Below, piece after piece: positions 173 to 4,574 of a stretch of 4,574 nucleotides of DNA. The DNA comes from a virus. Its lineage: Duplodnaviria > Heunggongvirae > Uroviricota > Caudoviricetes. The stretch is from the IMG/VR virus record IMGVR_UViG_2740892270_000010. One strand, given 5' to 3'. Both the position numbers and the translations under genes were made by a program. Below the pieces are notes generated by a model, which saw nothing but the letters and a program-made list of their open reading frames with translations, searched no databases and was not told where the DNA came from. Numbering within the stretch: position 1 is the first letter of the stretch; every line of letters begins with the position of its first letter.

Positions 173-1249
173 ATGAATATTTATCGCGCAATGACATCAT
201 TTTTTAATAATATGATGGCGATGTCTGCTCAGGCAGCTGAAATTTATAATAAAGACAGTAACAAGCTGGATCTGTACGGGAAAGTTAATGCTAAGCACTA
301 CTTCTCCTCTAATGATGCAGATGATGGTGATACTACTTATGCCCGTCTTGGCTTCAAAGGTGAAACCCAAATCAACGATCAACTGACTGGTTTCGGTCAG
401 TGGGAATATGAATTCAAAGGCAACCGCGCTGAATCTCAAGGTTCCTCCAAAGATAAAACCCGTCTTGCCTTCGCTGGCCTGAAATTCGGTGACTACGGCT
501 CCATCGATTACGGCCGTAACTACGGTGTAGCATACGACATCGGTGCGTGGACTGACGTCCTGCCAGAATTCGGTGGTGACACTTGGACTCAAACAGATGT
601 GTTCATGACTGGTCGCACCACTGGTGTTGCAACTTATCGTAACAACGACTTCTTTGGTCTGGTTGATGGTCTGAACTTTGCTGCTCAGTATCAGGGTAAA
701 AATGACCGCACTGACGTAACTGAAGCTAATGGTGATGGTTTCGGTTTCTCCACTACTTATGAGTATGAAGGATTCGGTGTAGGTGCAACCTATGCTAAAT
801 CTGACCGCACTAATAATCAGGTTATCTACGGTAACAACAGCCTGAATGCATCTGGTCAAAATGCTGAAGTATGGGCAGCTGGTCTGAAATATGATGCGAA
901 CAACATCTATCTGGCTACCACCTATTCTGAAACCCAGAACATGACTGTTTTTGGTAATAACCATATTGCCAACAAAGCACAAAACTTCGAAGTAGTTGCA
1001 CAATATCAGTTCGACTTCGGTCTGCGTCCGTCCGTTGCTTACCTGCAATCTAAAGGAAAAGACTTGGGTGCGTGGGGTGATCAGGACCTGGTTGAATATA
1101 TTGATGTAGGTGCAACCTATTACTTCAACAAAAATATGTCCACTTTTGTTGATTACAAAATCAACCTGATTGATAAGAGCGATTTCACGAAAGCATCTGG
1201 CGTTGCTACCGATGATATCGTTGCTGTAGGTATGGTTTACCAGTTCTAA
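173..1249 (+). CDS. nmpC: OmpC/NmpC/Lc-family outer-membrane porin (prophage moron); N-terminal signal region atypical, possibly 5'-rearranged
   Basis: 358-aa ORF. From about codon 15 ([14 protein letters not shown]...) to the C-terminal ...VGMVYQF it reads as a classical 16-strand enterobacterial porin of the prophage NmpC/Lc type, with a C-terminal Phe. The first ~14 codons ([14 protein letters not shown]) do not match the canonical MKKLTVAISAVAAS... signal peptide as I recall it. There is an in-frame TAG immediately upstream (170-172) and no good Shine-Dalgarno. Confidence 0.85.
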
Positions 1250-1437: not shown

Positions 1438-1821
1438 TTAATTAGAGTTATTAACAACGATATCCATCTCTAACCGGATATCTAATGCCATTAACATCCC
1501 TTCAATTATGCCCTCAGCCTTCTGTAACCTTTTCCCGATATAACCATCAGAGCAGCAATGCTTACCTGCCAGTGACATGAATGTCATACCGACTACATAA
1601 TAATCTACTAATAAATCGTGCAAATCGCTGTTGTTCTTTTTCAGACGGGCCATGCACCCGCAAATAATCATCGCGTCATCGTCACAACATTGCGGGCGAG
1701 ATTTTACTTTTGAAGTAATTAATCCCTTAAAACCGGCGGCAATGGACGACCAGGTCACATCTTCATGATTATTAGCCGCCCACGCTCCCCAACGCTCAAG
1801 AACCATCTGAATATCACGCAT
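1438..1821 (-). CDS. quuD: Late-gene antiterminator Q (phage 82 / DLP12 QuuD type)
   Basis: 127-aa product [24 protein letters not shown]...[16 protein letters not shown]...[12 protein letters not shown]... recalled as DLP12 QuuD / Q82 family with Cys-rich zinc-binding motifs. ATG at 1819-1821 (minus) has GGAG 7 nt upstream. The track ORF's TTG at 1834-1836 is treated as a spurious extension. Confidence 0.9.
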
Positions 1822-1906
1822 CAACTTACTCCACAAAAATCAGACCAGAACGCCAATTACAAGCAAAAATCAACAAAACAGTATTAGTTGATTGTTATCT
1901 CTGACT

Positions 1907-2047
1907 TCATACTCCTGCTCCTGTCAGGGTTTTGGCGTAATTCTTCAGTATTCGGTAATCGGTCAAAACAGAACCGGGGAAACGATATAAGCGCAGATGC
2001 CCCCAGCGGTGGCGAAGAAGTTCTGCCATATAAAACTCAAACATCAT
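1907..2047 (-). CDS. ylcG: Small 46-aa protein, YlcG-like (position and size match DLP12 ylcG)
   Basis: Hand translation of the minus strand gives [46 protein letters not shown]. Its ATG overlaps the rusA stop in an ATGA arrangement, with a GGGGAA Shine-Dalgarno-like element 5 nt upstream. Below the ORF-track length cutoff. Confidence 0.6.
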
Positions 2048-2406
2048 TCATTCCCCATTTCGGTGATGGTCAGTTCCAGCCTCCCACCTTTGGTAACAGG
2101 CATCTTCACAACGCGGTAATCAACGACCTGAGCATCATCCAGCCAGAAACCTGCTTTGGTGAGTGCGTCAAAAGCGGCTTTTTGCAGATTATCCAGGTCA
2201 CGGCGACGGCGATCCGGCATGTGGCACTCAATACGGATTTTCACTGGCATAGCCAGGCCGATATCCAGCATTGCGTTTTTAATGATTCGGGTGACGTTAT
2301 CGCGGTATGCCTGCCCTTCTGCGCTGATGTGTGTGCGCCCGCGATTATGGCGGTAATAGCGGTTATTGCTCGGAGGCCAGGGTAATGTGATGCTGTAGGT
2401 ATTCAC
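2044..2406 (-). CDS. rusA: Holliday-junction resolvase RusA (crossover junction endodeoxyribonuclease)
   Basis: 120-aa product [26 protein letters not shown]...[30 protein letters not shown]... is essentially the RusA sequence as I recall it. The start codon is GTG (reverse complement of 2404-2406), overlapping the ybcO stop as GTGA. Confidence 0.93.
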
Positions 2407-2693
2407 GCCTTAATAACCCCCTCTTTCAGCCAGATAACCTGCGTTCTCGCCATACCTTCCAGCGCGCATTCTTTTGCATACTCAGCATCGACAAAATATG
2501 TGCGGCGGTCGATTTCGTCGTGACAGGCAGAACATGCAATGGTGGCAATCAGGTCTGGCGGTTTGATACCGGTACCGCACAATCCAGCCAGCCGGATATG
2601 TGCCAGTACTGACGTTTCAGGATTGCCATTACATACGCCAGGGATTCTTACCTGGCATTCCCGACCACGCGCTGCTTTTCTCAAATCAGCCAT
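2403..2693 (-). CDS. ybcO: YbcO-family (DUF1364) Cys-rich putative nuclease of the lambdoid nin region
   Basis: 96-aa product [42 protein letters not shown]...[11 protein letters not shown]... matches DLP12 YbcO as recalled. ATG at 2691-2693 (minus) is preceded by AAGGAGG with a 4-nt spacer. The track ORF's 13-codon TTG-initiated extension is rejected. Confidence 0.9.
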
Positions 2694-2856
2694 GATTCCT
2701 CCTTGCTGCCAGTCGCAACCATTTTTTATCAACCAGGCTAGCGGTATATCCGAGCAGTGTTGGTATTTCGGATGGCTTCAGCTCAGGCTTACGCTTACGA
2801 CGATTTGATACTCTGTAGATGTGCCCGTTCATGACACGAATAAGCGGTGTAGCCAT
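2686..2856 (-). CDS. ninE: NinE-family small basic protein
   Basis: Hand translation gives [56 protein letters not shown] (56 aa), matching DLP12 NinE as recalled. Strong AGGAGG 4-5 nt upstream; its ATG overlaps the ybcN TAA as TAATG. Below the ORF-track cutoff. Confidence 0.8.
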   Translation of the reverse strand: MATPLIRVMNGHIYRVSNRRKRKPELKPSEIPTLLGYTASLVDKKWLRLAARRNHG

Positions 2857-3311
2857 TACGCCTCCTGCTTATCGCGCAGCTGCTGGTATTCACAGCTCTG
2901 CGGAATTGTCAGGTGGCAGCCGATATTCATCGCCCAGGCTTCGACTTTGCACAGGAAGATGTACATCTCGCCGGTTTCCAGCTCTGACGTATGGCGGAGG
3001 GATTGGACGGTGGTGACCTCGCCGGACACGACATCTACACGGTCTTTGCTTTCGTAGCCGAGATAGGTGTGCTTCATCGCGTCTTTGACCCACTCAGGCG
3101 TAGCGAAGGTCTTGCCGCGGGCGATGAGATATTCGCTGATCTCCGTGTACCACATGTGGCTGAGCGCGTTCTGCGACAGGCTGCGCTTCTCGCGCCACGG
3201 CTTAACCTGCAGGCGTAAGCATTGCCCGGCATCCAGCAATGGCTGAATCTGCTGGCCGATGGCCGCGAAGTTACCGCGATGGAGTTTGATGCCGTCTACT
3301 GGCAGAGTCAT
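2856..3311 (-). CDS. ybcN: NinB-family protein (YbcN-like; recombination mediator / DNA base-flipping protein)
   Basis: 151-aa product with the NinB-type motif ...WREKRSLSQNALSHMWYTEI... (compare lambda NinB ...RNRSLDQNRKLWA...). GGGAGG Shine-Dalgarno 4 nt upstream of the ATG at 3309-3311 (minus). Gene order ninB-ninE-ybcO-rusA-Q is canonical lambdoid. Confidence 0.9.
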   Translation of the reverse strand: MTLPVDGIKLHRGNFAAIGQQIQPLLDAGQCLRLQVKPWREKRSLSQNALSHMWYTEISEYLIARGKTFATPEWVKDAMKHTYLGYESKDRVDVVSGEVTTVQSLRHTSELETGEMYIFLCKVEAWAMNIGCHLTIPQSCEYQQLRDKQEA

Positions 3312-3403
3312 ACGGCCTCCCTAACGGAAACCGCAGAATGCAGAAAATCGCAGGTGCATTTCTGCATCTGTGACAAGGTGATGAGTTCAGATTGTGGTCG
3401 CAT
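3308..3403 (-). CDS. Possible 31-codon micro-ORF upstream of, and translationally coupled to, ybcN (YlcH-like position)
   Basis: Minus-strand ATG at 3401-3403 is preceded by AAGGGGA with a 5-nt spacer and an in-frame TAA just upstream. Product MRPQSELITLSQMQKCTCDFLHSAVSVREAV*; its TGA overlaps the ybcN ATG as ATGA. No homology claim possible. Confidence 0.3.
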   Translation of the reverse strand: MRPQSELITLSQMQKCTCDFLHSAVSVREAV

Positions 3404-3488: not shown

Positions 3489-3575
3489 AACTATCTTGAA
3501 GCCAAAACAGTGATCTTCGCTTTAAAAACCTTGTATACTTTCACCTAATCACAGCCAGAACTATGGATCTAACCA

Positions 3576-3953
3576 ATGACCAACAAAGAAAACAAAGATA
3601 AATATATTAACAAGTTCAAGAAAGAGCTTTCAAAATATATACAACCAACTGCTGGAGTGGACATTCAATTATTTAACTCTAAGGATGGTGGTGGTGTAAT
3701 TAAAGCCACTTTGAATAGAAGTGGAAAAAGAAAATCATCTATTGCTGGTAATTTTACTAAATTAGGTGAGGCAATTACCTCGAGTGGGCAGAGGGTTTTT
3801 GGTGGTGATCTATCAAATGTGAATTTTTACGGAACAAATACGATTTTTGATGGAGATACAATATTTTTAATTAAATCACCTGATTCAGAGGAGTGGTCAT
3901 CACAAAAAGCTTCCAAAGACGTAGAGGGCATCGTATTTGGAGGGAAAAAATGA
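3576..3953 (+). CDS. Hypothetical 125-aa Lys/Gly-rich soluble protein (AT-rich cargo gene A), function unknown
   Basis: 378-nt open frame in DNA of roughly 25-30% GC, where random frames are dense in stops. ATG start; no signal peptide or transmembrane segment; no family I recognise. A TATACT -10-like element lies at 3534-3539 upstream. Confidence 0.6.
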   Translation: MTNKENKDKYINKFKKELSKYIQPTAGVDIQLFNSKDGGGVIKATLNRSGKRKSSIAGNFTKLGEAITSSGQRVFGGDLSNVNFYGTNTIFDGDTIFLIKSPDSEEWSSQKASKDVEGIVFGGKK

Positions 3954-4035
3954 TTAACATTACTACTAAGGATGCACTCAAGTCAGTGGTGAAGTAAGAG
4001 ATCTAGTAATTCTTCTTGAAACTGATGGAAAAACG

Positions 4036-4377
4036 GTGTCTGATTATTTGCAGCCAATCCCTCCCAAAAAAGATACACACTGGAGCATGATTTTCATTCC
4101 GGTAGCAATTTATATACTACTTAATCTTGTATACATTATTGCTCACCCATTATTTCCTGAAAAATATCTAAAAACATCAACATCTATATTTCTATTCATT
4201 TCCTTCATATTAAGTGCAATAGTAGCATATTTTGTTTTCCATAAGCATAAATCTGCCACTCTATCCATATGCAGCTTAGTGTTCTTAGTGTTAATTGTAG
4301 GTGCTAACGTAGGGTTTATCAGTTACAGCGACCTAACACAAAAAGCGACGCAAAAATTAGATAGTTTGTCTAAATAA
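4036..4377 (+). CDS. Hypothetical small integral membrane protein with three predicted transmembrane helices (AT-rich cargo gene B); start codon uncertain
   Basis: Open frame in AT-rich DNA. Three hydrophobic stretches of about 20 residues (IFIPVAIYILLNLVYIIAHPLF; SIFLFISFILSAIVAYFVF; LSICSLVFLVLIVGANVGFI) separated by short charged loops. First start in frame is GTG at 4036; an internal ATG at 4087 would give 96 aa. Same strand as gene A, 82 bp downstream. Confidence 0.6.
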   Translation: MSDYLQPIPPKKDTHWSMIFIPVAIYILLNLVYIIAHPLFPEKYLKTSTSIFLFISFILSAIVAYFVFHKHKSATLSICSLVFLVLIVGANVGFISYSDLTQKATQKLDSLSK

Positions 4378-4484
4378 TTATGTTGCCATGCGAAGTATGC
4401 ATGGCTGCATGTCTGCCTTCCATTTAAAATGGGCTAAGACCTATAACCCTAAATATTATTCTTTATTATCTTCTTTACCACTTC

Positions 4485-4574
4485 GGTGATGCTGCCAACT
4501 TACTGATTTAGTGTATGATGGTGTTTTTGAGGTGCTCCAGTGGCTTCTGTTTCTATCAGCTGTCCCTCCTGTTC
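4485..4574 (+). mobile_element. IS1 insertion sequence, left terminus (IRL) and first 90 bp; continues beyond the window
   Basis: GGTGATGCTGCCAACTTACTGATTTAGTGTATGATGGTGTTTTTGAGGTGCTCCAGTGGCTTCTGTTTCTATCAGCTGTCCCTCCTGTTC is the IS1 left end as I recall it, including the ~23-bp terminal inverted repeat. Confidence 0.9.
4540..4574 (+). CDS. insA: IS1 InsA (transposition regulator), N-terminal 11 codons only; truncated by the window edge
   Basis: GTG GCT TCT GTT TCT ATC AGC TGT CCC TCC TGT translates to MASVSISCPSC, the InsA N-terminus. Confidence 0.8.
   Translation, partial: MASVSISCPSC

Follow-up and report, generated by a model that had tools for sequence, protein, structure and literature searches.

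Gene A, carried by a 4,574-nucleotide stretch of viral DNA (IMG/VR record IMGVR_UViG_2740892270_000010; the window), is a real gene under strong purifying selection, and together with the gene that follows it, B, it forms one two-gene unit co-inherited across phyla. In enterobacteria this unit is an accessory ('moron') cassette inserted antisense in the P-ninB slot. The pair is here read as a two-component phage-exclusion or abortive-infection module, in which A would be the cytosolic sensor or regulator and B the membrane effector; we put the chances of this reading slightly below even. A fuller claim holds that A-B is an undescribed, widespread two-gene anti-phage system in which A, a protein of new fold (K100, GTN, D115, QxxFGGxL), would control either a B with three transmembrane (TM) helices or a fused HNH nuclease, and which the carrier lambdoid phage would turn off through its antisense wiring when lytic; taken jointly these points are possible, with the balance clearly against their all being right.

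The window comes from a DLP12-like lambdoid prophage of E. coli or Shigella. Its features are given in Table 1, followed by the A-B loci of special context found elsewhere. From about position 3500, G+C content is 34-35% in the A/B cassette versus 51-56% in the flanking phage genes; both cassette genes, on the plus strand, are antisense to the phage early-right operon. No structured RNA families were found in the window.

Table 1 Positions of features in the window, and A-B loci of special context in other genomes (locus handles in the second column). TA, toxin-antitoxin; R-M, restriction-modification; ICE, integrative conjugative element.
Feature	Position or locus	Strand	Remarks
Prophage porin gene (OmpC/NmpC-like)	173-1249	+	
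quuD (antiterminator Q)	1438-1836	-	
rusA	2044-2406	-	
ybcO	2403-2732	-	
ninE	2686-2856	-	
ybcN (NinB-like)	2856-3311	-	
Two stable hairpins between cassette and ybcN	3313-3370	-	z = -4.0; on the phage early-right strand
Candidate -10 hexamer TATACT, preceded by TTG	3534-3539	+	Found by eye; 37 nt upstream of A start
Gene A, 125-aa cytosolic protein, first of cassette	3576-3953	+	ATG start; WP_000182282.1, phrog_18061
GGAGGG Shine-Dalgarno sequence for B	3939-3944	+	Inside A 3' end, 5 nt before B ATG
Gene B, pseudogene here	3950-4377	+	Relatives: 142-aa inner-membrane protein, WP_000608370.1, phrog_16940
Stable hairpin just 3' of B stop	4380-4410	+	z = -2.9 for 4375-4460; no U-tract
IS1 element, terminal part (89 bp)	4486-4574		Runs to window end
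A-B in a non-lambdoid, unrelated phage	L014/L015		
A-B in an islet with BrnA, Gp49-HTH and Hypoth_Ymh	L018		
A-B in ICE cargo	L051		Beside Peptidase_C14 (caspase-like) and DUF4238
A-B between methylase and Res of a type III R-M system	L040		Bacteroides
A-B directly 3' of HsdM-HsdS	L032		
A-B adjoining HsdM-HsdS	L037		
A-B between Lon-like protein and SNF2 helicase	L020		Nitrospira

The frame of gene A is present exactly as the sequence-only reading had described it, and the peptides quoted there (MTNKENKDKYINKFKKELSKY, VIKATL, NVNFYG and TIFDGDTIFLIK) all occur in its translation. The Lys- and Gly-rich composition was confirmed (K, 17 of 125 residues; G, 15; S, 13; N, 9; T, 8; pI 9.5), as was the basic N-terminus, with seven K/R versus three D/E in residues 1-21; this basic first helix is kept across the family, at a median net charge of +3. 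The protein had been called soluble, with neither TM segment nor signal peptide, and the maximum Kyte-Doolittle 19-residue mean of 0.43, with no hydrophobic segment, agrees. That the frame is real, rather than a chance ORF, is borne out by purifying selection and by family membership: the protein is identical to RefSeq WP_000182282.1, its DNA differs from that of E. coli strain 317 by three synonymous and zero non-synonymous changes, dN/dS is 0.08 against a 76%-identical homologue, and the phrog_18061 HMM (function unknown) is matched end to end (E 9.3e-85; residues 1-125 on profile positions 1-125 of 125). Gene A is carried by 48 of 5426 complete E. coli genomes (~1%), chromosomally in every case.

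A word-indexed search with A gave only 13 close enterobacterial clusters. An HMM search had been proposed as a check on the protein; run exhaustively in HMMER with the profile of these 13 clusters, it returned about 111 representative clusters, almost all of 120-135 aa and from many phyla. Two apparent relatives were discounted as spurious or chimeric: P0130, which has 1251 aa and six weak repeat matches, and the pentapeptide-repeat chimera P0013. Conserved residues were read from an alignment of 79 family members: K100 is invariant; Y10, G39, F84, G86-T87, W107 and D115 are near-invariant; further conservation is seen at N88 (completing G86-T87-N88) and in the loop Q72-x-x-F-G-G-x-L. Because family pI spans 4.7 to 9.9, with 17 of the 79 relatives below 6, the Lys-richness noted for A is local and AT-driven, largely a trait of the AT-rich enterobacterial copies.

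The absence of a nameable motif in A, as first reported, was upheld in Pfam, NCBIfam and PADLOC (PADLOC-DB v2.0.0, 2023), where no family was matched. The 79 relatives gave no Pfam domain except one XPD_arch match (E 0.0018), and in PADLOC-DB v2.0.0 four scattered matches of one member each (best E 0.002). Searches of the PDB by single sequence and by profiles gave chance-level matches only. Structure prediction and structural search, likewise proposed, were successful in part: the AlphaFold model is confident (pLDDT 92.4), but no informative structural neighbour was obtained, the only match in BFVD being an uncharacterised siphovirus protein (E 1e-3), and, as regards the DNA/RNA-binding role first guessed for A, no nucleic-acid-binding fold was recovered in the structural comparisons. 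The small beta-rich fold suggested earlier holds for the strand part (~30%), but with ~33% helix the model is mixed alpha/beta. In tblastn, A found no homologue among 50,697 deposited phage genomes; IMG/VR proviral contigs do carry it.

Gene B starts in intact relatives at ATG 3950, overlapping the stop of A as ATGA (3950-3953), and GTG 4036 is thereby excluded as its native start. The window lacks one G at 3973/3974 (GGATGGCAC has become GGAT-GCAC), and the native frame therefore ends at 3995-3997, after 15 codons. What is left open is a GTG-started remnant of 113 aa (4036-4377) that retains the TM region and matches phrog_16940 at E 2.2e-74 over profile positions 30-142 of 142, the first 29 positions being missing because of the frameshift. 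The deletion occurs in none of the 48 A-carrying complete E. coli genomes; among IMG/VR loci it is found only in L058, which shares the IS1 junction as well and from which the window itself probably derives. It might be a sequencing error. With B frameshifted, the A-B module of the window is probably dead. The earlier reading was right in linking A functionally to a neighbouring membrane gene but missed that this neighbour is here a pseudogene. Its suggestion that A could be a small toxin is without support: A is intact in the window although its partner is frameshifted, and A alone therefore appears to be tolerated.

An independent IS1 insertion was seen in E. coli CV839-06 (L002, 6177-7034), splitting A after about residue 45 and leaving B intact; it seems, therefore, that IS1 targets the cassette recurrently or that the locus is dispensable.

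Full-length B has a soluble N-domain of about 44 aa, with the shared pattern MKxGxxEGTxEE...F..NGL...Y, and three hydrophobic segments predicted to be TM helices; its dN/dS is 0.08-0.13. Since the most basic loop (HKHK or RFK) follows TM2, lying between TM2 and TM3, an N-in topology is favoured, which would place the conserved N-domain in the cytoplasm alongside A. Pfam and NCBIfam yielded nothing informative for B either, and six full-length B proteins gave no match in PADLOC-DB v2.0.0 at E <= 0.5. A phage holin was considered and set aside: B has no holin Pfam match, the prophage has its holin gene essD and lysis genes elsewhere, and the cassette is also present in non-phage chromosomes.

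B lies directly after A in all enterobacterial loci inspected. Behind metagenome relatives of A (~30% identity; marine and other), the downstream protein aligns to B at 17-27% identity. A scan of one genome per species, with a reduced A alignment as query, found the pair in Nitrospira, Neptuniibacter, Nitrosomonas, Syntrophaceae, and other Delta- and Alphaproteobacteria; in Acidobacteria, Synechococcus (Cyanobacteria), Saganbacteria and Myxococcales; and in Gemmatimonadota and Bacteroidota. A B homologue of 117-154 aa follows A in 20 of 22 parsed genome loci, the two exceptions being a contig end and a decayed copy, and the 4-nt ATGA overlap is present in 13 of the 22. A Bacteroidota ICE carries a long form of A (220 aa), and here too the next gene encodes a 3-TM protein. 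Identities of A (76/67/32%) compared with those of B (66/66/26%) show A to be at least as conserved as its partner.

One cluster (P0104; contigs of ~1.7 kb) has, in place of a 3' B, an HNH endonuclease (PF01844, E 1.3e-12) fused to the A domain, and the effector accordingly looks exchangeable between a 3-TM protein and a fused HNH nuclease, as judged from these sequences. With the co-inherited, overlapping pair and this fusion, a sensor or adaptor for the membrane partner is the best-fitting of the three roles first guessed for A. The metagenome contigs L046/L047, too short to include neighbour genes, encode at 246-1589 a 447-aa protein in which an A-like N-domain is combined with an HNH endonuclease motif and, at the C-terminus, with an uncharacterised domain of ~200 aa.

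In every enterobacterial case the cassette is antisense and has the replication genes on one side and ninB/DUF1367/ninE on the other, although the carrier prophages differ in replication module (O/P versus DnaB), Q type and lysis genes; in the lambda gene order P-ren-ninB its slot is the position of ren. Farther afield, A-B is embedded in or adjacent to R-M genes in three unrelated lineages (L032, L037 and L040), and other TA genes lie near it in L018 and L010. Most of the 24 genome loci have ordinary housekeeping genes flanking A-B, and most are not R-M-associated; the association with defence and conflict genes is accordingly a suggestive one, short of statistical proof.

The L040 locus (Bacteroides sp. 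UMGS1534, 353-10916) reads SNF2 helicase, two genes of ~220-230 aa, N6_N4 methylase, A-B, and type III Res with RE_endonuc, an apparent defence island. A DUF4391 protein is also among the pooled neighbour matches, with no locus given. In a prophage of GCA_030132385.1 (L009, 5665-7348), a colicin-like gene (377 aa, weak PF01024) adjoins A-B in the same nin-region slot and has a convergent immunity-like gene (weak PF03857), another conflict cargo.

The cassette may be transcribed from a promoter of its own: its candidate -10 hexamer has a poor -35 and was not reported by a consensus scan, which lists no better plus-strand site upstream. Translational coupling of A and B is suggested by the ATGA start/stop overlap at 3950-3953. 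The hairpin behind B faces the 3' end of gene P, which in relatives is convergent to the cassette; it may serve the cassette's 3' end as a weak terminator or a stabiliser. On the other side, the two hairpins between cassette and ybcN, the second of which overlaps the ybcN ribosome-binding site (GGGAGG), are the boundary of the antisense insertion slot; they are at the position of lambda tR2.

We infer contact between A and B, their sensor and effector roles, a defence phenotype and an antisense switch. A would be positioned, in a lysogen, at or close to the cytoplasmic N-domain of B; when another phage infects, a cue sensed by A would switch B to a state that damages the membrane or blocks entry. 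When the prophage itself grows lytically, N-antiterminated pR transcription would, given the antisense placement, collide head-on with the cassette and could silence it, a plausible switch for self-immunity. The coupling of prophage defence to the life cycle via an antisense 'noncontiguous operon' has been described for Tha/Ith of Staphylococcus (PMC11087260). The invariance of A's conserved polar residues across phyla speaks against this reading, as it fits a conserved partner or ligand better than the recognition of fast-evolving phage proteins.

The layout of the cassette (a small soluble gene first, a 4-nt overlap, a small second gene) is also the classic one of type II TA systems, and these are likewise mobile, patchy and near other TA genes. 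An addiction module of this kind, with B as membrane toxin, A as the upstream, coupled antitoxin and the pair stabilising prophage or island without sensing phage, would be consistent with the islet-like distribution of the cassette and its TA neighbours in L018 and L010, and the decay seen in the window (B lost, A intact) is in the order expected for toxin and antitoxin. We nevertheless consider it unlikely. No recognised toxin or antitoxin domain is present in A or B, and B falls in no known toxin family; its being a polytopic membrane protein is unlike the second gene of type II systems, and the confident model of A has no DNA-binding fold (HTH, RHH or AbrB) such as type II antitoxins have. 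Antitoxins usually diverge faster than toxins, whereas A is conserved at least as well as B; CV839-06 is viable with A split and B intact, though B may then be without a promoter; and the HNH-fused A domain fits a sensor better than an antitoxin. More doubtful still is superinfection exclusion in the manner of T4 Imm or P22 SieA, where DNA entry would be blocked at the inner membrane with no suicide and A would be an assembly or stability factor. B is small, prophage-borne and located in the inner membrane, the site where injection is blocked; the orientation of the cassette and its candidate promoter suggest expression in the lysogen; and a membrane-bound defence active during genome injection provides a precedent (PMC13190303). 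The conserved cytosolic A, the A-HNH fusion and the R-M embedding in distant non-phage chromosomes point instead to intracellular sensing. Known Sie proteins are, moreover, typically single genes.

There is, finally, a small chance that A-B has no part in conflict and hitch-hikes on mobile DNA as an accessory: a transporter or channel regulator, an envelope-stress factor, or a modulator of lysogeny or lysis of the carrier phage. The housekeeping nature of most neighbours in the 24 genome loci and the lack of a match to any known defence model would be in keeping with this; so would the weak similarity of B to generic membrane-domain families (7TMR-DISM_7TM, E 1e-4), but these Pfam similarities are below the gathering thresholds. 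A patchy, strongly constrained distribution over more than eight phyla is unusual for a physiological accessory, and the recurrent phage, ICE and R-M locations and the fixed antisense orientation in lambdoid prophages also argue against it.

For the exclusion or abortive-infection reading, the best analogy is with lambda RexA/RexB, likewise a prophage two-gene operon, in which the gene of the soluble protein precedes that of a small polytopic inner-membrane protein (144 aa in RexB, 142 aa in B) and which is placed for expression in the lysogen; its logic, a cytosolic sensor gating a membrane effector, is that proposed for A-B. Homology was rejected for both proteins by hhalign (79-sequence A profile versus RexA, probability 0.04%, E 0.89; B profile versus RexB, probability 0.5%), and A-B is best regarded as analogous, not homologous, to RexAB. 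The two also differ in the size of the soluble protein (A, 125 aa; RexA, 279 aa), in the membrane protein (three predicted TM helices plus a soluble N-domain in B; RexB is described as 4-TM) and in location: Rex is in the immunity region, co-transcribed with cI, and A-B antisense in the P-ninB slot. The function of Rex has been demonstrated, whereas that of A-B is a proposal.

PrrC, in the type Ic prr locus, is a small defence or abortive-infection gene embedded in an R-M operon. A-B resembles such genes by its location between or next to R-M subunit genes in L032, L037 and L040 ('guilt by embedding'); PADLOC and Pfam show no homology to PrrC or other embedded systems, and PrrC is an anticodon nuclease whereas the putative effector of A-B is a membrane protein. 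With Tha/Ith (PMC11087260), A-B has in common an accessory unit oriented against the main phage operon, so that a change between lysogeny and lysis could turn the two transcription states in opposite directions. The Tha/Ith arrangement places the defence gene in the cI operon and its inhibitor on the antisense strand; in A-B, with no homology, the whole candidate defence cassette is antisense in the lytic early-right operon.

As far as libraries and literature show, the architecture of A-B, a mobile pair of sensor and membrane effector, is known and its parts are new, neither family having been named, modelled or described. Literature searches by accession, PHROG identifier and topic gave no description of A or B, and their accessions are absent from the DefensePredictor supplements; a recent description is possible, because PADLOC-DB v2.0.0 dates from 2023. 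If A-B is a defence system, it is a compact one (~800 bp), built from two families without annotation or structural relatives and ranging from prophages of E. coli, Klebsiella and Enterobacter to Bacteroides, cyanobacteria and Nitrospira. Its P-ninB ('ren') slot would then be flagged as an antisense cargo site for mining, and its small size, invariant residues and apparent effector swap would make it an easy model for a sensor gating a membrane effector. Otherwise A-B remains a mobile and conserved pair of genes in ~1% of complete E. coli genomes. The family is well worth testing by experiment.

For the window itself the message is more modest: the copy is degenerate, and A is an intact orphan. 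Compared with E. coli strains 317 and A7, about 67 bp are deleted from the porin gene at ~212, taking the ribosome-binding site, the ATG and the first 14 codons (signal peptide MKKLTVAISAVAASVL); the remaining ORF is fused in frame to an upstream ATG. Export of the prophage porin is probably lost in this copy, since the signal-peptide start has been replaced by a non-signal N-terminus. In replication gene P, IS1 replaces all except roughly the last ten codons. From the B frameshift, the loss of the porin start and the IS1 truncation of P it follows that the prophage is decaying, and with all three genes damaged A is probably an orphan within it. The combined lesions are typical of IS1-rich, Shigella-like genomes. 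A partial protein identical to A (P0002) is annotated from Shigella sonnei.
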